A DNA stretch of 60,695 nt, counting the filler, from Globobulimina sp. (Eukaryota), in assembly GCA_003354225.1 (NCBI GenBank). It is 15 parts of 15 records of this genome, joined end to end, with 100 filler letters (N's around TTAATTAATTAA, not from the genome) between each part and the next. Parts side by side here need not be neighbours in the genome. Positions count along the whole stretch, not along the records: positions 56,749 to 60,695 come from PIVH01001841.1; 14 more parts are not named here. One strand, 5' to 3'. Numbering within the stretch: the stretch's first letter is position 1; each line of letters starts with the position of its first letter. Below, in pieces: positions 949 through 60,695 of the stretch. The translations under genes and the position numbers were made by a program. The notes under the pieces are model-generated. The model saw nothing but the letters and a program-made list of their open reading frames with translations. It had not been told where the DNA came from and made no database searches.

Positions 949-2094
949 ATGGGATCCGATAATTCCAAACCAGATGCTTACGCATATCCACATCAACAAT
1001 ACGAATATGATGTACAACAACAAGTCGCCAAACAACAAGCAACACACAAAGCCAAAACACATCATCATCATCAACAATGTCATAAACACGCACACCACGG
1101 TCACCACCATCATACCCATGATGTAATACAACCAAAACCAAAACCGCCACCCCCTCCACAACCACAAGTCATTCAATATGTAGCAGTGCCTCAACAAATT
1201 CAACCTCAAACTATACCACAACAACCAATACCAATACAACAAACACTTGCAAATCCAGCAACAGTTGCAACCGTCGCAGCTGCTCAAACCCAAATTGTTC
1301 GACGTGTCGTAGCTCCATCAAATGCAGTTGTTCCTACAGCAACAGGTACCGGCGTTGTAGCAACAAATCCAAATACCACAGCAACTGTACAATTACCACA
1401 ACAACAACAACAACAGTTTACACAACAAGCACTTGCACCGACAGCTGCCATTGCTGCCACTGCTGCCACTGCAGTCACAGCACAACAACATATTGAATAT
1501 AAACAGCCTCCAATTCAGGCAACACAGTATGCCGCACAGCCAATGCCTCAGTATGCGGCACAGCCAATGCCTCCGCCAATACCGCCGGGATATATTCAAA
1601 TTAAAGGTGCTGATGGAAAACAGTATATTGTACCTCGAGGGCCGCCAGGGACTATTCCTATGGTAGTTGGGGCTGCTAAAACTAAACCAAAAGTGTTGAA
1701 AGCAAAGAAAAAGTATAAAACCTGGGGTGTTCGACTGGTGCCAACCAGCGAGAGGGCAAAGAGGAAAGTGCGACATCATGAATATCAATATTCAAAAATT
1801 GTGATTGGTATTGTCTGTGATGGTGATAAGTATGATGGGTATAATAAATATGGTGGCTCCGGATATGGTGGATATGGACATAGCAATTATGGAGATTTAG
1901 ATCGTCAAAAATTTGTAACTATGAAAGTAAAAGTAACGGATAAAATTGCAATTCAACAGAATACGCAAAAACATTATTTGGAATTCTGGAAAAATGGAAA
2001 AATGTATCATCAGGTTATAGCGTTGGATATGAAAAAGAAATTTCAAATTCGTGTTGGTTCTTCAAATCATGACTATGATGTTAAATTGTATTGA
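949..2094 (+). CDS. Putatively myristoylated Q/H/P-rich protein with C-terminal SPRY/B30.2-like domain
   Basis: Starts MGSDNS (MGxxxS). Low-complexity N-half. The C-terminal beta-strand pattern KTWGVRL..KIVIGIV..VTDKIAI..LEFWKNGK resembles SPRY. Confidence 0.6.
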   Translation: MGSDNSKPDAYAYPHQQYEYDVQQQVAKQQATHKAKTHHHHQQCHKHAHHGHHHHTHDVIQPKPKPPPPPQPQVIQYVAVPQQIQPQTIPQQPIPIQQTLANPATVATVAAAQTQIVRRVVAPSNAVVPTATGTGVVATNPNTTATVQLPQQQQQQFTQQALAPTAAIAATAATAVTAQQHIEYKQPPIQATQYAAQPMPQYAAQPMPPPIPPGYIQIKGADGKQYIVPRGPPGTIPMVVGAAKTKPKVLKAKKKYKTWGVRLVPTSERAKRKVRHHEYQYSKIVIGIVCDGDKYDGYNKYGGSGYGGYGHSNYGDLDRQKFVTMKVKVTDKIAIQQNTQKHYLEFWKNGKMYHQVIALDMKKKFQIRVGSSNHDYDVKLY

Positions 2095-2212
2095 TTTTGT
2101 ATTTTTATCAATTTTATGTATTTTTATTGCTGTTGTAATTCTTGTGTTTGATATTATTAATTCCTTTAATTCAAAATCGAAAACTCTAATAATCTTTTTG
2201 CCAAACAGTAGA

Positions 2213-3915
2213 ATGTCTACATTTCAGTTGTTTGGTATTCCATTTGAACTCGGATTGTTAATATTTACTGTATCATTTGGTATTACTTTTATTATGATCC
2301 TAAAATGGAGAAACACTACAAAATCACAACTGGAATGCCGAAATATCCCATTATTTTTAATTGATGACTTTGACGCGTGTAATAAAGCAATAATTAATTT
2401 TTTATCACACAATATAAAAATAATTGGAATGGATTGTGAATGGAAACCATACTTTGATAATAAAGATGAGAATAAAAACACTGTCTCATTAATTCAATTG
2501 GCACATCACCGACAATGTTTATTGCTGAGAATACAGAAAATAATCACTGAGAATAATGGCAAAATACCATTGCAATTAATTCGATTATTATCAAACACAC
2601 AAATTATTAAAACAGGTTTAAACATAACAGGCGATGCAAAGAAATTATATCAAGATTATAACATCTCATTAAGAGGTTCGGTGGAATTAACGCATTTAAT
2701 CAAACATAAATGTTCATTTTTCAAATCAATTGACTCTTCAAAGTATAATATTTTCAGATTGGATGAGTTATCCTCATTATTATTAAAAATTAACATGCAA
2801 AAATTAAAAGAAATCACATTAAGTAACTGGGAAAACAAACAGTTAACCAATAAACAGATAAAATATGCGGCTGACGATGCTTTAATTTCCTATTTTATAT
2901 TCATTCAATGTATTTATTATCGATTGTTTGATAATGTATCAATGATCAAACACAATGAGAAATTAACAGATGATATATTATCATTTGATATCGATCAATA
3001 TTTGCTTGATAAAAATGATAATTATTTGTTACAAATTTGTGATGGAATTACAGATGTTAAAGTCATCAAATTAGAACAAAAAATTGATAGAAAAAAGATA
3101 TTTAAACAGAATGCAAATGCTGATAAATATGATAATTATACAGCACAGCAACAACGACTGTTACTCAGGGAAGAAAGAAAAAAGAAATACAGAGAACGGG
3201 CATCACGTTCAAAACCTTTGTATGAGAACTGCCGTTTATTGGATATAAATGGACATTTGATCGCAAATTGCTCCACAAAAACACTTAATGTATAGCTATA
3301 TTGTCACAATTTTAAATGCAATATGCAAATATATGTTGTTTGTGTTGTTTTTTAAAGTGGTATTTAAAAAAGGATTTGGCAGAAAAAGTTGATGAAAGTA
3401 CTGTAAAATTAAAGTTCAAAGCAAGGAATGACCGGACTTCAGCTGATAAATTTTATCAAACCTCGAAAAAGAATGAATGTGTCGTTTGTGGCGTAGCCGA
3501 GTGTCTGATTAGATATTATGTGGTGCCGCAATGTTATCGGAAACATTTCCCGGTTGCAATTAAAGCGCATTCATCTCACGATATTGTGTTATTATGTCAT
3601 GATTGCCATCAGCTGGCAGCCATAAATGAGGATATATTAAGAAATAAATTGTGTAAAATGTATAAAATCGATGAATGGAATAAACCAATTGATATTAATA
3701 AGACATTGATAAAAATATCGAAAGCAGCAAATACATATTTAAAATGTGGTGATATGTTACCAATAAAAAGAAAGAATGAGATATTGGATGTAATTTGTAA
3801 TTATTTTAATTTAAAGTCCTATGATGAAGTAAATGATGAAATATTAAGAAATGCTGTTGGATTGATACCGAATAATAAGGAAAGGAATCAATTAAAACAG
3901 AGAGTTCTTTTTTAA
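2213..3915 (+). CDS. EXD2: EXD2-like 3'-5' exonuclease (WRN-type DEDDy domain + HNH-like zinc domain), intron 3290-3357
   Basis: N-terminal TM helix, IIGMDCEW (ExoI) and YAADDA (ExoIII). Motifs RSKPLYENC, KNECVVCG, VPQCYRKHFP and HSSHDIVLLCHDCH match EXD2. A 68-nt phase-0 GT-AG intron gives LN|WYL. The C-terminus may continue beyond the contig. Confidence 0.9.
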
Positions 3916-24346: not shown

Positions 24347-24900
24347 ATGCTTCCGCTTAAATTATTATATGACGCTCTGAAAACTGTGAACACAGTGGAA
24401 TTTGGCCATGGCGGCAATGGTCCATTTAAGTTGTTATTATCCAACCAAATCATATTAATACATGTTTGGTAGTGAGGATATGACGTATTACAACAATATA
24501 TACCATGCCATTGACAATACGTGGTATTGCTTAGCCAGCCCTTATTATTGAACCAATTGTCACCATTTGTTGACTTATAAAGTTGTTGCAAATATTTTAG
24601 TTGTTGTTGTTTGTCGCAATATAGGTTTGCGTCCATTGATGGACAATAAAAATTTGGCATAAAATGAAAATCAAAGTCATAATCTGGGAGAACACAAATA
24701 GGATCGATATCTGGTTTTGTTCTGTTGTGGATGGTGGAAGAGAGTGATGCTAATTTATCGAGACTGTGTCGTAATTTGTTGAATGTTGCCATGGTATTTT
24801 GGGTGCAATCATTAGGTGGAAATGTGATATTTGGTGATATATTGCTCGATATCATGTCTATGGATATTAGGCAACAGATAAACTTGATGATAACACGCAT
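24347..24900 (-). CDS. Secreted/receptor-type leucine-rich-repeat protein, N-terminus
   Basis: Signal peptide, LRR N-cap LYKSTNGDNW..GWLSNTTYCQWHGIYC, and LRRs LDNNNLNGPLP and ASYNNLSG. Confidence 0.85.
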
Positions 24901-47811: not shown

Positions 47812-48551
47812 TCATTTCTTTCTTTTATTTACTGCACTTTTCAATGACTTTTCTAGCCATTGCTTTTTATCTTTCTCAAAATCAATATCTTTTAATTTAT
47901 AAACCTCATACTTCCCACAATCAGAATCGAAAAAATAACACATTGTATTCTCACCATTTATATATTCCTTATTAATCTCTGAATTTTGAATATAAGATAT
48001 TGTACTACAACAAGCCGCTGCTGGATCACCGGATGATGATAACATGTCAAAATAATATTCATTCCCTGGAAATGCATTACTATCCCATGCATACATTGCA
48101 ATCTTTAAACATTTATCAAATCGCTTATCCAATATGATATGGCCGGGATTATTCTTTCCAAAAAATATAAATATTTTATGTCCATATTTATCAAAAATAT
48201 AATATTCACTTTCATTTTCATTTTTATTTCCCATCCATCCAAAATATAAAACATTAATATTTGATAAATCACTGTTTCTCACAATATCTTCAACAACATT
48301 TACAATTATCCCATCTTGTAATGTTTTATTAATGCACCAAACACCCGTTCCAATGCCAACTATATAACAATAACCATATTTCTTTTCTTGTTTGCACCGA
48401 TTATCTGCATCAAATAAAAACAATTCCAATGATATTTGAATTCGGATTTTATACATTTCTTTATTTAAAAACGATTGATTTCCATAACCTGGTTTTTTAT
48501 AATATTTGTCTAAAATATATTCATTGTTATCATCATATTCACTTTCTATTT
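47812..48551 (-). CDS. MavL-like (DUF4804) macrodomain-type ADP-ribosyl hydrolase, 5'-truncated
   Basis: Motifs YKIRIQISLE, VGIGTGVW and YAWDSNAFPGNEYYFDMLSSSGDPAAACCSTI..QN..IN. Frame is open to the contig edge. Confidence 0.8.
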
Positions 48552-48651
48552 NNNNNNNNNNNNNNNNNNNNNNNNNNNNNNNNNNNNNNNNNNNNTTAAT
48601 TAATTAANNNNNNNNNNNNNNNNNNNNNNNNNNNNNNNNNNNNNNNNNNNN

Positions 48652-53660: not shown

Positions 53661-53898
53661 CACAACCCCTGAAACCGGTATTGACCCTTATATCAGTAAT
53701 CCGTTAAAAACCTCTCTATATGGGTAATATCTGGTAACATCATCAATATGTCCTGATTGCCTATCTATCGGCGGAGCCAATAAATCAAATTTCGGCACCT
53801 TACGATAATAATTAACATACAGTCTGGATAAGTTCACCTAATTTCTGCTCAATATACACCCGCAACTCATCAGGTAATTCAGTATTCTCTCCAACCCG

Positions 53899-55040
53899 GT
53901 GTGTGATAAACTGCTTACCATTGTGATTTGTCTCTGTTGTATTCTCGAAGAATTATATAGAAACACTTTAATAGTGACTCCATTAAACTCCCCTCCAAAT
54001 TATAACCATAACAACCGCACAAAAAACTGTCATAAACCATGGAATAACAAGATAAAAAAACTAAAGAGGAAATGCAAACGTTTACGCCGCCGAATCCAGA
54101 GATTGAAGCGGAAAGCAAAACGATACTCTACTGATTTCCAGCCTCTAGAATTAAATGTGCTGCAATCCAATAAGTTGAAAACGATAAAAATGGCTAAATC
54201 CAAATACAATGATCGAATAAATAAATATATACAAACTTGCAAGGACTATGGACGCCGTTTCTGGCGTACCAAATCAAATAATAAAACAAATGATATCAAC
54301 ACTAATAATATTCTACCGTTAAATTTTAAAAACAAAACAAATATAATTGACCCCTACCATCAAGCAAAAGCGTTACAAGAGGCCATGACCAGACCCTCAA
54401 AACCAAAAGCAAGTCCTATACATAATAAATGGCATAAATACGTAGACAAATTCGTCCCTGAATATCTCAAAAAGCATAGAAAATCACCAATAAATGACCC
54501 AATGGATGTGCATAACATTAAAAATGACAAAATAAAACAAAATAAAATCCGAGATCCGTCGCGAGTTAATATCAATACAGAATAATGTGAGATCCGATCA
54601 GTGATAAAAAACTTAGATACACACAAAGCGTATGGACCCGATAGAATCCATAACCAAATGATAAAACATGGAGGCGAATCACTCATTGAGTGCCTCATCC
54701 CTCTATTTAATAAATGTATGACTAATGGAGTATTCACAAGCTATTGGAATTTCTCCCACTTACTACCAATCCCAAAGCACAATAAAGACCACAGTAACCC
54801 TAAAAACGACAGACCCATTGCAGTCTCTTCGTGCTTAGGTTGGGTTTTCGAGAAAATCTTAGCGAACAGGCTCCAACATTTCTGTGTAACAAACAAGATA
54901 TTTGATAACTACCAATGTGGGTTCCAGATAAATCGCTGTTGCGATGATGTATTAACAACATTTATAACTGACATACAAACTTATTTTGATATGGTCAGTG
55001 ACACTGACGTTGTATTCATAGATTTTGCGAAGGCATATAC
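53899..55040 (+). mobile_element. Defective non-LTR (LINE) retrotransposon, ORF2 tether + N-terminal reverse transcriptase
   Basis: Motifs KAYGPDRI, LLPIPK..RPIAVSSCLGWVFEKIL, QCGFQ and VFIDFAKAY. In-frame TAA at 54583-54585; truncated right after DFAKAY with no YADD. Confidence 0.9.
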
Positions 55041-55670
55041 TATAATATATATCACGATGTTTTTTTTTGTTCAGAACTTAATAACTCCAAGACAAAACAT
55101 TTTCAGAGCTGATACTTGGCACAGATAACACTTACTGGCTCGCCTGCTCGGGATTAAAGTCAACTTTGGCAACGAGGTATTGAGTTTGAGTTAACGCCAT
55201 TTTAATGGTCAAAATTAGGCTAAATTTAACGATTTTTCGCAAAAACTTCACAAATTTTAGTCAACTTTAACTTTTGTAAATGATACTATTTTAAATTTGT
55301 ATTTACGTCATATTAGTGTGCTTCCAAATGTAAAATGTAACCTTTCTCTTAAATTTTTAGTTTTGCAGCTGCAACGAGTTTTCGCATAATCGCATAATTG
55401 TTCTATTTTTATTGAGGTTTTCGTATTTTTTTTATAAAAATCTGGGTAGTGTTTGTTGGTATAAAAGAATAAATATATTTATGGATAAGATTAAACAATC
55501 TGGGTAGTGTTTGTTGGTAGTTCTTTGGCTACATTATTTATTTTTCTGAATTACAAAAAAAACAAAGTGCTTCTATTTTTTGGATATTTTCAGAGTGTTA
55601 AAATTATAGCGAGGAATTTATAAAACTTTTTCACTTTTTTATAAAAGAATAAATATCTTTATCGATTACA

Positions 55671-56648
55671 TTAAACAAAAATGTCACTTTGTATCCTATC
55701 ACCGCGGGTTGTTTTAATTTCACTTTGTGGAGAAAATAAATCATCTGAATCATTATCAGTCTCATCATCTGCATCCATGATATCTGCGGTATTCACTCCT
55801 TCTTTGTTTACTTGATTCGTTTTCATTAATATTGTTTCTATATTTTGTTGCTTATTCTTTTTAGCTGCGGACACAATTGATGGTGATGCACTGGTTTGAG
55901 TTAATCCAATCACAGCTTCAGCTCTGCGCACATTCTTTTTAATTGTCATCAATTTATAACCATAGATCATCGATATCAACATTACACAACATATAATTCC
56001 TACAGCTGATATTATAGCACATAACAAATAAAATGATTTCCTATTCATCCCATCACTTTGTATCGGAGCTACATTTATTGCGGTTGATGAAGTTTCATCC
56101 ATTGCCACTCCAGCATGAGGGTCATCTGTAAATTAACAAATAAATGAGACTACAACTTATATATCACATATTACAATGATTTATTGATTACCTTTTGATA
56201 TCGTTGGTACTTTTATTCGCATTTTTGTTGGAACTTTGGTTGGCCTTTTTGTTGAATTTTGAGTTGGAACAAATGTTGGATTTTTCGTTGGATTTGTCGT
56301 TGGAACTTTGGTTGGATTTTTTGTTGGATGGATTGATGGATTTGATGACGGATTGAGTGTGAGCGCAGAGGATGGGAATGCAGAAGGATTTGATGTCGGA
56401 TTTGATGTGGGTTCCGTTGTTGGGATATCAAGGCAATAACATGTACAGTATGTACCACATCGAGCACTTCCAGTGAGCGATATAAGTGTTCCAGTATTTG
56501 ATCTGTCATTACATCTTTGATTGGAAGCACAGTTTGAAGTTATTGTACATTCAGAAGCACCATCTATTACTATGTTACATGCGTTTGCATTGCATAAATA
56601 TCCGCCGTCATAAATAGTGGTTTCTACACAATTTGCTTCACCCAATGT
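55671..56648 (-). CDS. Single-pass surface protein with Cys-rich ectodomain and PTxxPT mucin-like stalk, intron 56126-56191, 5'-truncated
   Basis: PTTEPTSNPTSNP...PTKNPTKVPT repeats. Spliced SK|DDPHAG. TM FYLLCAIISAVGIICCVMLISMIY. Confidence 0.8.
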
Positions 56649-56748
56649 NNNNNNNNNNNNNNNNNNNNNNNNNNNNNNNNNNNNNNNNNNNNTTAATTAA
56701 TTAANNNNNNNNNNNNNNNNNNNNNNNNNNNNNNNNNNNNNNNNNNNN

Positions 56749-56929
56749 GAGATCGCATCAATATATCTCAATTTCGTATAGTAATACTGATCCAAGTCAA
56801 AGGTATAAAGCATTGACTGCTCCCAAAAGATGCAGCACAAACTCAAGTAATAAAGAAATGTCACAGTATCCGGTTGTTAAATATATTCCAAAATACTCAT
56901 TGCAGGCATTATTACCCTCAAAGTTTTGA
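56749..56929 (+). CDS. 3' end of an unknown protein (ends ...LLPSKF*)
   Basis: About 58 open codons near the contig edge ending at TGA 56927-56929. Confidence 0.4.
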
Positions 56930-57011
56930 AGAAAAAGATTTTAATTTTTTGTTTGGTGTATTTTTATTTAATGTCAAAACAGCATAAATCACTTTTTTTT
57001 TATTTATTTTT

Positions 57012-58882
57012 TCAATCGTTACTCAACAATACATTTCTCGAATGTTTGTATTTGGAATATTTTGAAGATTTGGAGGATTTTGAGTCTTTCCTGTTCTTAT
57101 ATGTTATGATTGGTTTTAAAATCGCAACAACTGTAATCAAGTTATGGTCAACTAAATCCTGTATAACCTTTGCAATATCTTTGTATGCCAGCGGTGCTTC
57201 CTCGTACATTAAGCTTTTATCCCCACAAATAACATGACTTTGTAATTCCGTTTTTTTTAATTGATTTACATTTGGACATTTCTTGGACATTTTTTTTACT
57301 GCCTGGCTCCTCGTTAACTTTCGCCCGGCGCCATGAGCCAATGAATACCCATAATTTCTCTGTTCCTCGTTTGGTTTCACAATGTATGAATATGCGCCAC
57401 GTGAACCTGCAATAACAACATAGCCGCAATCACTCGGCGCCGCTCCTTTTCTATGAATGTACCAGAACTCTTCCTTGTTTTCCTCAAATATCGCTACCAA
57501 TTCATCCAAAATACCTATACACTGCGAATATAACTGTCCATCATTACTTTTCTCACAAATATCAACCACATCCCGCTCCATTTTACGCTCTGTATTTCCA
57601 CTGTCCATTTCTCGCAATATTTCTCTTTCCACGCTAACAAATTCATGTTTAGCTTTACCGCACAAATAATTATGATAAACATCAATATGACAGATACAAT
57701 TATCAAACGCAAAAGCGGTGCCTGCTCCCATGCAACGTAAAAACCTCTGAGCAATAATCATTCTATTTTTCCTCGCCCACTTCAATGCATTGTCATGCAA
57801 AAGCATATACGATTGAAAATCATCAGAGCCGACATCCAGCGGTTTCTGCGCTTTATGCGCTTTCAAATAATTGTCCAAAATGGCAGCACCAAAGCCTCGC
57901 GAACCAGAATGTACGGTAAGAAACAATTTATTCGCATCCCAGCCCAATTCAGCAAACAAGTCGCCATCAACGATCTGTTCAATACACTGCAACTCCGCGA
58001 AATGATTGCCATGGCCGATGGTCCCCAGTGCGTGGTCAAAGGCATGTATATTGACTCCATTTTGAATGACGGCATCAATGTCAATTCCATCTTCCTCTGC
58101 GTTGGAAGGCCAATCTATTAACTTATTACGCAATATTTGTTGATCATGAATCCAGGGCTCATCTAATTTGATATCATGGAGCCATCGATGCAACCTTTGA
58201 TCATTGACAATATCTTTGCAAATATTCGTTTCAATCAAAGCCATTCCGCAGCCGATATCTGTGCCAATTAAGTATGGATATACGTACTGCTGCGATACTA
58301 AACTGACGCCAATCGGATAACCTTTACCCGGATGAATGTCGGGTTGGGCCACCACTAATTTCATTCCTTTTAAACGTTGGCAAGCTTCCAACTGTTTCTC
58401 TGCATCGCTGGAGATTGTGGCGGATGATACAATGCAGCGCATCAAACAAATATGTTTTTGCGTTGCGCCCATTTCCTTACGTATACCGACATATTCTTCT
58501 CCCAGACTCACTGAAATGGATAACGCTGTAAAAAGAAATGATGTGTGATCAAATTCATTTTTTTTTGTTTGTTTGTTAACTTGTTTTGAAATTCTTAGCG
58601 TATTGAAGGGAGATAAGCTGTTTGATGTTGCTTTTGGTAATTTCTTCTCCTGTTTGATTCAGGAAGAACTTGTGTGGCTAATATGTGATATAATTTATAA
58701 TGACTTATTATAATTTGAGAGAATTTGCGTTGTTAACTCACTTTTTTTTTGATTCTTAGTTTGTCCTTTGATAGTTTTACCAGTTTTTTGTAAAATTTAT
58801 CGGTTGAGTCTGGTTTGATTTTACATGTTTTGTTGACACTGCGGTTTGCATTTAGACATATTTGTATTGTTATTGAAGCCAT
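57012..58882 (-). CDS. rtcB: RtcB2-type (PrfH-coupled clade) RNA 3'-phosphate/5'-OH ligase with extra N-terminal domain; exons 58882-58742, 58677-58581, 58525-57012; 583 aa
   Basis: Motifs QPDIHPGKGYPIG, IGTDIGCGM, LGTIGHGNHFAELQ, VHSGSRG, DVYHN, HRKGAAP, GSRG, SLAHGAGRK, SHVIC..LMYEEAPLAYKDI and PIITYK. Two phase-consistent GT-AG introns (64 and 55 nt) extend the ORF to an ATG at 58882. Confidence 0.92.
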
Positions 58883-58966
58883 TATTCGTGTATTTTAAAT
58901 GTCAAAAACTTAAAAGATAAATGCGTCGCCAATAGAGTCACTTTGCAATAGCGTAGTGCCGTCGTC
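58883..58966. promoter_or_regulatory. 84-bp divergent intergenic region (putative bidirectional promoter)
   Basis: Lies between the ATG at 58882 (-) and the ATG at 58967 (+), so both 5' UTRs and promoters must fit here or overlap. Confidence 0.55.
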
Positions 58967-60382
58967 ATGAGTCAATTCAGTCAACGTATACGTAAAAAGT
59001 ACTGCCGTTGGGGTGATGATTGTAGATATTTCAAACAAGGCAACTGTTATTTTTACCATCCACCACCATACAAAAGTAGAAGTATTAAAAATGAAACGAA
59101 TACTAATTACGTTTCAAAATCTGATTACGATGCATTTACTAATTATCCATCGAAACCAAAAATTATAGCAAATCCACGTAGAGAAAGAACTTTTGATCGA
59201 TCATTAATACAAAAAGGGATTAATTTCTTTGAATATCGCTATTCATTTGGAATAATTGGATATAAATTGGATGAAGCAACCGACGAATATTTGTATTTAT
59301 GTATACAGCATAAATACAAAGGGAAAGAATGGGGTTTCCCCAAAGGACATTTTGAACCAGATAAGGAATCAAATGCTGGCTACGATACAGCAAAAAGAGA
59401 ATTTACCGAAGAAACTGGCATTGAATTTAATACCACAAACATTCTCTCAGTCGATTGGGATAATCCATTCATTTTAAATTACGAATTTGTTCGCAATGAC
59501 GAATTACGCAAAAAATGGACAGTTTTATTTGCAGCAAAGCTGTCAAACACTGCCGCACCAAAAATCATTCGACCGCATGAAATTAACGCTGTTCAGTTTT
59601 TAAATATCGCGCAATTTCATGAAAATGTGCGACATAAAGAATGCAAAAATGTCATTCAAGCGTTGAATTCGACATTAATTAATTTAAAACCAGTGCAACA
59701 ACAGCAAAATAATGACAATGTAGAAAGCAAACAGGATTTTGAGATGGAGAGAGTTTTAATAATTTTGCGCGGATTTCCGGGTGCTGGTAAATCGACATTA
59801 AGTCAAGCAATAATCGGATATTATAAAGCATTGGATATTGGTAACAATGAGGTGGTTTCCTGTAGTTTTGACAAATATCATTGGATTGGAGAGGAAGGGA
59901 ATGGAGTATTTAAATTCGATGCGAATATCCATAGAGCGACAAAGAAGTGGTGCAAAGATGAAGTATTTGGCTCAATGAAAAAAGAAATGAAAGTTATTAT
60001 TGTCGACAATGGGAATTTTGAAATATGGGAATATTTGGATTATGTTAAATGGGCCAAACAGTATGGATATAAAATATTAATTATTGAAATTAAATCGGAG
60101 AATAAAATTAAAAGAATTGAACATATTCAGCATATCCTTAATAATGGTTTTGTGGCTGAGTGTTATTTGTGTGTTATGCAACAAACGCGCTGTAAAATGG
60201 ATATACCAAACAATGCAATGATTAAATTTATACAGAAATGGGAATCGGATAAGAACGCAATTGTTGTTGAGCCGAAATTTAATAAAAATGATGAATGGAG
60301 TAATAAAGAATTGGAAGTTATATTGAATGGAATGAAAAGTGCACAAAGTTTTGAATATCCAGAAGATACTTGGCAGGAATGA
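58967..60382 (+). CDS. CCCH zinc finger + Nudix hydrolase (Ap4A-hydrolase-like) + P-loop polynucleotide-kinase-like (N4BP2/AAA_33) fusion
   Basis: CRWGDDCRYFKQGNCYFYH; SFGII..WGFPKGHFE..TAKREFTEETG; LIILRGFPGAGKSTL..FDKY..FKFD..WC..IIVDNGN..WEY..AKQYGY..IE. Confidence 0.85.
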   Translation: MSQFSQRIRKKYCRWGDDCRYFKQGNCYFYHPPPYKSRSIKNETNTNYVSKSDYDAFTNYPSKPKIIANPRRERTFDRSLIQKGINFFEYRYSFGIIGYKLDEATDEYLYLCIQHKYKGKEWGFPKGHFEPDKESNAGYDTAKREFTEETGIEFNTTNILSVDWDNPFILNYEFVRNDELRKKWTVLFAAKLSNTAAPKIIRPHEINAVQFLNIAQFHENVRHKECKNVIQALNSTLINLKPVQQQQNNDNVESKQDFEMERVLIILRGFPGAGKSTLSQAIIGYYKALDIGNNEVVSCSFDKYHWIGEEGNGVFKFDANIHRATKKWCKDEVFGSMKKEMKVIIVDNGNFEIWEYLDYVKWAKQYGYKILIIEIKSENKIKRIEHIQHILNNGFVAECYLCVMQQTRCKMDIPNNAMIKFIQKWESDKNAIVVEPKFNKNDEWSNKELEVILNGMKSAQSFEYPEDTWQE

Positions 60383-60695
60383 CTATTACCCATCAATTAT
60401 TATATACTTTTCTAACTTTAGAACACCATTTAAGGGTATTGATCCGCTATTTTTTTGTGTTTTTAGTTACATGTTTTGTTTCTGATTTTTTCTATCCGCA
60501 TGTCTTGAATCCATTTTATTTCTTCATAGTAATTAATACCAATACCAATAATACATTATTCCATCTTCCAAACTTCTCTTGCTTTGTCACAGGATGCCAT
60601 CATTACTGCATTCCTAGTGAGCTCAAAAATCTTAGTTCATTTTAAATGGATGCTTGATCATGGTACAGCCAATTTGTGTATTTCTGATTGTGTTA

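Follow-up and report, generated by a model that had tools for sequence, protein, structure and literature searches.

A divergent gene pair in Globobulimina encoding a eukaryotic RtcB2-type RNA ligase and a CCCH-Nudix-kinase fusion: a possible pair of RNA-break enzymes

All RtcB2 enzymes characterised to date are bacterial and form one half of the PrfH-RtcB2 ribosome-repair module, and a eukaryotic gene for such a ligase that stands head to head with the gene for another predicted RNA-end enzyme raises the question of whether the two work as a pair. The locus lies in a 60,695-nucleotide stretch of DNA from Globobulimina sp. (GenBank assembly GCA_003354225.1), termed the window throughout, within the part taken from record PIVH01001841.1 (positions 56,749 to 60,695). 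On this one contig, rtcB2 occupies the minus strand and the plus strand carries a gene for a fusion of a CCCH finger, a Nudix domain and a P-loop kinase. The two genes diverge, and their models leave 84 bp between the start codons (58883..58966) as a shared 5' intergenic region. The original prediction had placed two divergent genes here with this spacing, and the coordinates of both open reading frames (ORFs) agree with it. Both genes are real and transcribed.

The rtcB2 gene runs from 58882 to 57012 on the minus strand in three exons separated by two GT-AG introns, and its spliced frame is open for 583 amino acids (aa); the minus-strand frame as originally read, before the upstream exons were added, covers 57012-58658. 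Exon 1 (58742..58882) starts with an ATG at 58882-58880, encodes the first 47 residues, which align with the N-termini of long homologues and form the start of a putative KHA-like beta-grasp domain, and is followed by a GT donor at 58741. Intron 1 (58678..58741, 64 bp, GT..AG) leads to exon 2 (58581..58677, 97 nt), which encodes the middle of this domain, and intron 2 (58526..58580, 55 bp, GT..AG, phase 1) leads to exon 3 (57012..58525, stop codon at 57014-57012). The latter encodes the end of the N-terminal domain, a linker, the RtcB catalytic domain (approximately 58394-57096) and a Lys/Ser-rich tail.

Contigs from three sequencing runs of two studies (X1-X3), which are classed as RNA by guess, cover both genes. 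X1 and X2 each contain one spliced contig that skips 64 nucleotides (CT..AC on the plus strand) and joins 58742 directly to 58677, so that intron 1 is removed exactly. The removal of intron 2 follows by arithmetic only: record 12 of X2 has 358 letters for the span 58405-58875, which equals 471-64-55+6 when a 6-nt insertion is counted, and approximately 94 letters, at the place of exon 2, lie between its two aligned pieces. The joint of intron 2 has no row of its own because the low-complexity stretch 58550-58583 was skipped. Past 58875, the loose end of the X1/X2 contig, read by eye from its letters, shows an ATG in frame, with a stop in the same frame ahead of it. The residues from exons 1 and 2 align with the N-terminal domain of approximately 15 other long RtcB2 homologues, with approximately eight residues inserted where exons 2 and 3 meet. 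The two small 5' exons proposed earlier are therefore backed by their GT-AG models, by homology and by spliced contigs, and their introns are confirmed in public transcript-type contigs, exactly for the first and by calculation for the second. The Met at 58472, which lines up with the bacterial N-terminus, was considered as an alternative start but discarded, since the exons upstream of it are joined on by splicing and show homology to the N-terminal domain of relatives.

The X1-X3 contigs are only approximately 95% like the window, whereas those of the runs X4-X7 are at least 99% alike. The comparison of the window with the X1-X3 contigs lists 40 differences, of which 29 fall at third codon positions of rtcB2 (own count; there are 137 further differences), and both indels listed inside coding sequence, of 3 and 6 nt, keep the rtcB2 frame. 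The third-position bias speaks for purifying selection on rtcB2. Across 56950-60450, the X1-X3 sequences also differ from the window upstream of both start regions. X1 and X2 are labelled as one organism and X3 as another, the latter shared with X4-X7, which suggests that two fairly divergent strains or species carry the locus.

The fusion gene consists of a single exon (58967..60382, plus strand) that encodes 471 aa, within an open frame read as 58952-60382. Its only full-length relative among 1.84 billion representative sequences is P0121, a transcript-derived 470-aa protein from Bolivina argentea with 64% identity over 98% of the window protein; the search returned 1743 matches at E<=0.001 and seven at E<=1e-30, and all others are fragments or single domains. 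Record 7 of X1 covers 58958-59982 without a joint, including the finger, the Nudix domain and the P-loop region. The fusion is therefore taken to be real, since P0121 matches it along nearly its full length and the X1 contig crosses all three parts. The three-part CCCH-Nudix-kinase architecture was retrieved twice only, in the window and in Bolivina.

The minus-strand frame matches the RtcB ligase family in Pfam (PF01139, E=8.5e-65). In NCBIfam, the protein scores 349.1 bits against TIGR03073 'release_rtcB' (cut-off 271.8) and, marginally, 407.1 bits against NF007153 (cut-off 407), and the earlier assignment to the RtcB2 type stands. The window protein retains all 47 invariant columns of an alignment of 121 sequences, among them D-x-H, GCGM, NHF, HSGSR, HN, HRKG and HGAGR, which we take to be the metal- and GMP-binding motifs of RtcB, and by its motifs the enzyme is predicted to be catalytically intact. 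Unlike the single-domain bacterial RtcB2 proteins of approximately 375 aa, the 583-aa protein has an N-terminal domain and an insert. The insert, of approximately 60 residues within exon 3 (approximately 57659-57470, minus strand), precedes the HRKGA motif, is present in transcript-type contigs and is common to the window protein and its closest relative, P0001. Its interpretation as an unspliced intron was rejected, because the X1 and X2 contigs run without a joint over 57423-57710 and P0001 has the insert at the same place.

The N-terminal extension marks a group of its own. Approximately 100 extra N-terminal residues are present in long eukaryotic and giant-virus homologues, and the named members of this long group include records from Didymodactylos, Nyctotherus, Acrasis, Aplanochytrium and Ancoracysta as well as Edafosvirus. 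In a FastTree phylogeny of the 121 sequences, which has a midpoint root only and two long-branched rows, 14 sequences of at least 450 aa form a clade (local support 95), and a set with support 98 unites all 19 sequences of that length and two short ones, apart from the other 100 short, bacterial-length sequences. The window protein is sister to P0001 (support 99). By this phylogeny the ligase belongs to a eukaryote/giant-virus RtcB2 clade carrying an N-terminal domain, a clade that is new here. The nature of the domain is tentative. Pfam matches to KHA, DCX2_DCDC1 and Ubiquitin_DCDC1 fall below threshold (E 0.007-0.05) and occur in three of the nine RtcB2 homologues scanned, and an Atlas model of residues 1-95 of the homologue P0004 gives TM scores of 0.70-0.71 to KHA and CIDE-N clusters. 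These resemblances suggest a KHA/CIDE-N-like beta-grasp, and the long form is called KHA-RtcB2 below.

The domains of the fusion protein were assigned by profile searches and by comparison of an alignment-based AlphaFold model (mean pLDDT 85.3) with known structures. The putative CCCH finger (59003..59059, plus strand; residues 13-31) was read from the translation as C-x5-C-x7-C-x3-H and is kept in P0121, and the model has a pLDDT of approximately 60 in this region; in Pfam, CCCH reaches E 0.12-0.37 on P0121, and nothing matches at E<=0.01 on the window protein. The Nudix domain (59219..59701, plus strand; residues ~85-245) scores 40 bits against PF00293 (cut-off 21.1). Its best sequence match is CT771 (4ilq, E=3.9e-9), and its fold gives TM scores by target of 0.77-0.86 to CT771 and to the human, nematode and Plasmodium Ap4A hydrolases, with 0.83-0.86 for the best of them. 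Z scores to Ap4A hydrolases are 17.6-18.3, the highest for 5cfi_A, with decapping enzymes just behind (ASFV g5Rp 17.7, Dcp2 15.1, RppH 13.6). The RE-x2-EE part of the Nudix box, whose consensus is G-x5-E-x7-RE-U-x-EE-x-G-U, is kept (RE-F-T-EE-T-G-I). By these resemblances the domain is probably of the Ap4A-hydrolase/NUDT2-like kind, with a predicted activity on dinucleoside polyphosphates or PPP-RNA.

The P-loop kinase domain (59747..60349, plus strand; residues ~261-461) falls in the clade of polynucleotide kinases (PNK) by its AAA_33 match (29.8 bits, cut-off 27) and by weaker KTI12 and AAA_18 matches. Comparison with 126 relatives shows that Walker A, the Asp of CS-x-D, DN-x-N and the lid Arg are kept; a Cys-containing insert, E-C-x2-C, is common to the foraminifer-like relatives only. 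The closest structures are archaeal PSTK (3a4l_A, Z 16.1, rmsd 3.1 over 168 aligned residues) and the Mucorales RNA 5'-OH kinase (9drz_A, Z 15.0, rmsd 2.5 over 147), followed by Kti12 (13.1), the Clostridium polynucleotide kinase Pnkp (12.8) and 6-phosphofructo-2-kinase (12.6). Pfam gives no CUE or Smr nuclease match on the fusion protein, and Pfam and the model together give the finger, the Nudix domain and the kinase only, with no 3'-phosphatase domain. Of the CCCH-Nudix-PNK-like fusion as first described, the Nudix domain and the kinase are thus borne out by profiles, whereas the finger has its spacing and its conservation in Bolivina but no significant Pfam match. Likewise, the label 'N4BP2/T4-PNK-type' holds at the level of the kinase clade and fails for the CUE, Smr and phosphatase domains.

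The relatives of both enzymatic domains have telling fusion partners. The Nudix family recurs in P0129 of Elphidium margaritaceum, with an MJ1316 cyclic-phosphate-end domain (49% identity), in P0135, with Tpt1/KptA (46%), and in P0151 of Reticulomyxa filosa (RFI_19877), where a Nudix-like part precedes Tpt1 (38%). Kinase relatives comprise P0140 (AAA_33 and CNPase), the N4BP2-like P0158 and P0187 (with CUE and Smr), P0174 (R3H, AAA_33 and primase-polymerase) and P0241, a 'Swiss army knife' RNA-repair protein that combines CCCH, MJ1316, 2H phosphoesterase, AAA_33 and HAD_SAK_1. Since these partners are RNA-repair domains, they tie the second gene to RNA ends independently of rtcB2. These fusions, together with the resemblance of the kinase model to RNA 5'-OH kinases and PSTK, lend further weight to the proposal that both products act on broken RNA ends. 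As a separate observation, P0129, P0135 and P0151 suggest that a single Nudix family has radiated specifically within the foraminiferan lineage, with fusions in turn to MJ1316, Tpt1/KptA and a PNK-clade kinase.

RtcB joins RNA ends bearing a 3'-phosphate or cyclic phosphate to 5'-OH ends via His-GMP. The reading preferred here, tentatively and at a little less than an even chance, is that the locus is a bidirectionally transcribed pair of RNA-break enzymes, one that would seal (RtcB2) and one that would make 5'-phosphate ends (Nudix and kinase). KHA-RtcB2 would act in the cytosol, joining 2',3'-cyclic-phosphate or 3'-phosphate ends to 5'-OH through His-GMP. The CCCH finger would hold the second protein on RNA, where the Nudix domain may cut pyrophosphate-linked 5' groups (triphosphate or cap-like) and the kinase may phosphorylate 5'-OH ends, both yielding a 5'-monophosphate RNA end. 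Such an end is not a substrate for RtcB and instead serves 5'-3' exonucleases and ATP-dependent ligases. Because the product of the second gene would withdraw ends from RtcB in this way, the two proteins together would tip a severed RNA either towards being resealed or towards a different fate. Published work supplies parallels for the parts. Bacterial RtcB2 mends 30S subunits that have been cleaved in the decoding centre, with E. coli RtcB2 as the known case, and most such genes are paired with prfH (PMC9304027). NUDT2 turns PPP-RNA into P-RNA for XRN1 (PMC8616924), and a preprint (bioRxiv 10.1101/674358) proposes that the kinase of NONU-1/N4BP2, a member of the PNK clade, phosphorylates 5'-OH cleavage products for Xrn1.

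Several observations weigh against a functional pair. The linkage is seen in one genome only, since the other holders of the locus (X4-X8) are near-identical DNA. The fusion was found outside the window only in Bolivina, whereas KHA-RtcB2 is present in records of ciliates, heteroloboseans, labyrinthulids, rotifers and a giant virus, none of which shows such a fusion; the co-distribution of the two genes expected in the original prediction is not supported, as one is seen only in foraminifera and the other occurs here and there among many protists and in a giant virus. In EukProt, whose sets include Bolivina, Elphidium and Reticulomyxa, no RtcB2 from Bolivina or any other named foraminiferan appears among the best 120 of 4278 near-length matches or the best 120 of 571 shorter ones. 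The closest RtcB2 (P0001, 3676-bp contig) and the closest Nudix fragment (P0122, 5188-bp contig) lie on different contigs, possibly from different organisms. Identity to the window proteins is 52-59% for the RtcB2 relatives P0001, P0276 and P0277 and 39-54% for the Nudix or kinase pieces P0122, P0128, P0130, P0131 and P0132. Within the Nudix domain, Asn takes the place of the first Glu of the box, next to a 3-residue insertion, as in all foraminiferan relatives. Finally, an unrelated divergent pair in the window has first ATGs at 24900 (minus strand) and 24987 (plus strand), 86 bp apart, so a short head-to-head spacing is not special here; by the same crude first-ATG measure, three other divergent ORF pairs are 369-975 bp apart. 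This comparison pair had been described as LRR/GMC, and its spacing and the GMC oxidoreductase on the plus strand are corroborated, but the minus-strand ORF has no Pfam match and its LRR identity is not. The 84-bp and 86-bp stretches have no obvious common motif by eye.

The main rival reading is that the two genes are chance neighbours, RNA enzymes of separate pathways, for example RtcB2 for rRNA or tRNA and the fusion for mRNA surveillance and decay or Tpt1-type 5'-phosphate ligation, whose short common 5' region is due only to a compact genome. The 86-bp pair, the unlike phyletic distributions and the single genome in which linkage has been seen all fit, as does the density of ordinary housekeeping genes: the other ORFs of the window, which is AT-rich, include VPS13, ALG6/8, Sec7, UNC-50, a cytochrome bc1 subunit, a USP9X-like protein and a GMC oxidoreductase (domain scan of 36 ORFs of at least 110 aa, out of 86 listed in 60.7 kb). 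Linkage was also sought elsewhere. A profile scan of viral contigs returned at least 80 canonical phage RtcB loci (23-33% identity) with none of the RtcB2 type among the matches listed. In none of 80 such loci does a comparable Nudix or kinase domain occur within 5 kb of RtcB, which fits chance adjacency but is a weak negative because the custom HMMs used for the two domains are narrow. Queries of viral contigs with the Nudix-kinase and Edafosvirus proteins found no relative. In metagenome contigs, a degenerate RtcB2 motif had no matches, and a degenerate Nudix motif matched three loci, none of them related by tblastn. Against chance, both genes encode predicted RNA-end enzymes, which makes an accidental adjacency less likely; genomes have few such enzymes, and that two of them should share an 84-bp 5' region by accident seems unlikely a priori. 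The same three runs supply contigs for both genes, an observation that would at least be consistent with shared control. The RNA-type contigs of either gene stop within or beside the 84-bp region and none bridges it. Chance adjacency is a substantial possibility, if short of probable.

Other readings change the role of the fusion or doubt the locus itself. The fusion could be an accessory of RtcB2, its Nudix domain stripping dead-end RNA-3'-ppG or GMP-capped 5' ends and its kinase tuning the available 5'-OH; a Nudix of the dinucleoside-polyphosphate hydrolase type is chemically suited to a ppG linkage and the genes are adjacent, yet among the relatives retrieved for this Nudix none has RtcB as a fusion partner or linked gene, the partners being Tpt1, MJ1316 and a kinase, and by established RtcB chemistry a kinase that makes 5'-phosphate opposes ligation, which renders the accessory role quite improbable. 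Alternatively, the fusion could act on small molecules, with the CCCH finger serving only to localise it. Its best structural matches are Ap4A hydrolases, its paralogues are fused to Tpt1, 6-phosphofructo-2-kinase is among the kinase matches, and, in a point that also weighs against the paired reading, the KptA-Nudix fusion of Bodo saltans virus is taken by the Aravind group (PMC9503650) to process ADP-ribose derivatives. The best of the kinase matches, however, are RNA-directed, as are the partners to which relatives are fused, and the N-terminal finger and the MJ1316 cyclic-phosphate-end reader on a paralogue also point to RNA, so that this reading is unlikely. The bacterial origin of the best curated ligase models might suggest that a bacterial rtcB2 contaminant was sequenced or mis-assembled onto a eukaryotic gene. 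This is hardly credible: two spliceosomal-type introns are removed in transcript contigs, the ligase falls among long, N-terminally extended eukaryote/giant-virus sequences, and the surrounding genes are eukaryotic. An identical DNA contig from run X4 is unbroken over 57539-59335, the 84-bp region included, which excludes contamination or mis-assembly for practical purposes.

The paired reading can be carried one step further, to an unlikely but specific proposal. In a PrfH-free defence against ribotoxins that would either repair or condemn, KHA-RtcB2 would reseal RNA, ribosomal or other, after cleavage by colicin-E3-like toxins from bacterial prey or by RNases of viral or host origin, and the divergent CCCH-Nudix-kinase would turn the remaining 5' ends (OH, triphosphate or cap-like) into 5'-phosphate, so that a 5'-3' exonuclease would degrade whatever stays unrepaired. 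The fusion would then be a foraminiferan invention that arose from the radiation of Nudix fusions with kinase, Tpt1 and MJ1316. The scan of the 36 window ORFs found no release-factor domain that would indicate coupling to prfH.

The domain families of the KHA-RtcB2 clade and of the CCCH-Nudix-kinase fusion are each known, and the combinations appear to be new. Protist RtcB paralogues of bacterial affinity have already been reported (PMC12699882). No paper joining RtcB with KHA was found in the literature searched, and RtcB is absent among the matches listed for literature on RtcB, Reticulomyxa, foraminifera and Nudix; the survey of Burroughs and Aravind (2016, NAR 44:8525), which lay outside the scope of this search, may already describe these architectures. 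A transcribed, intron-bearing eukaryotic RtcB2 clade with a predicted beta-grasp domain, whose window member has no PrfH-like gene among the ORFs scanned, raises the question of what RtcB2 repairs in eukaryotes. The fusion unites two predicted activities that make 5'-monophosphate ends, each separately linked to XRN1-dependent decay (NUDT2 and the N4BP2/NONU-1 kinase), and so offers a compact test case for how cells decide whether cleaved RNA is resealed or destroyed. Each of the two proteins is one polypeptide and lends itself to simple assays. Should the linkage turn out to be conserved, the locus would be one of few eukaryotic operon-like RNA-repair neighbourhoods.

Other features of the window include 28 runs of N, arranged in pairs of exactly 44 N every ~4.05 kb (3962-4005/4018-4061, 8022-8065/8078-8121 and so on to 56649-56692/56705-56748), which suggests masking rather than assembly gaps. 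The pair of N runs just downstream of rtcB2 interrupts an ORF at 56181-56876, of which 56181-56696 (minus strand), directly downstream of rtcB2, is Cys-rich with Pro/Thr repeats at its end (PT repeat, 1e-7) and looks secreted or surface-exposed. Approximately 2 kb from rtcB2 in window coordinates, two adjacent ORFs at 53878-55128 (plus strand), the second with an RVT_1 match (9.8e-7), are probably a retroelement remnant. An ORF at 47812-48603 (minus strand), approximately 9 kb from the gene pair in window coordinates, has a strong match to a MavL-like ADP-ribosylhydrolase (macrodomain, 9.5e-38), which would be a further ADP-ribose-related enzyme, and one at 2033-3295 (plus strand) contains a 3'-5' exonuclease domain (DNA_pol_A_exo1, 2.3e-15). 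No tRNA genes were found in the window.

Set beside known systems, the window ligase shares its subfamily models with bacterial RtcB2, as in the RtcB2-PrfH module of E. coli ATCC 25922, has 40-47% identity to the members of approximately 375 aa and keeps their invariant residues. It differs from them as a eukaryotic gene with introns, an N-terminal, putatively KHA/CIDE-N-like domain, the insert of approximately 60 residues and a separate clade, and its neighbour is a Nudix-kinase where that of most bacterial genes is prfH. With the long homologues of Didymodactylos, Nyctotherus, Acrasis, Aplanochytrium, Ancoracysta and Edafosvirus it shares the N-terminal extension, predicted to be a beta-grasp, and the clade, but only the window protein and P0001 carry the extra insert before HRKGA, and a Nudix-kinase neighbour is not known for any of the others. 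The Nudix domain resembles NUDT2, CT771 and other Ap4A hydrolases in sequence, fold and the RE-x2-EE motif, and is unlike them in its fusion to a CCCH finger and a kinase, its replaced first Nudix-box Glu and its longer loop. The kinase resembles the PNK-clade enzymes (N4BP2/NONU-1, the N-domain of CNPase, the Trl1-type and Mucorales RNA 5'-OH kinases and PSTK/Kti12) in its AAA_33/KTI12 matches, its motifs and Z scores of 12.8-16.1, whereas the CUE, Smr, CNPase, ligase or phosphatase domains found with N4BP2, CNPase, Trl1-type and T4 or bacterial Pnkp proteins are missing from the fusion. Closest in plan are the Nudix-Tpt1/KptA and MJ1316-Nudix proteins of Reticulomyxa (RFI_19877), Elphidium and Bodo saltans virus and the 'Swiss-army-knife' proteins, with which the fusion shares the same Nudix family (38-49% identity) and the stringing together of RNA-end domains; unlike the Tpt1/KptA and MJ1316 fusions, the window protein has a kinase as its Nudix partner.

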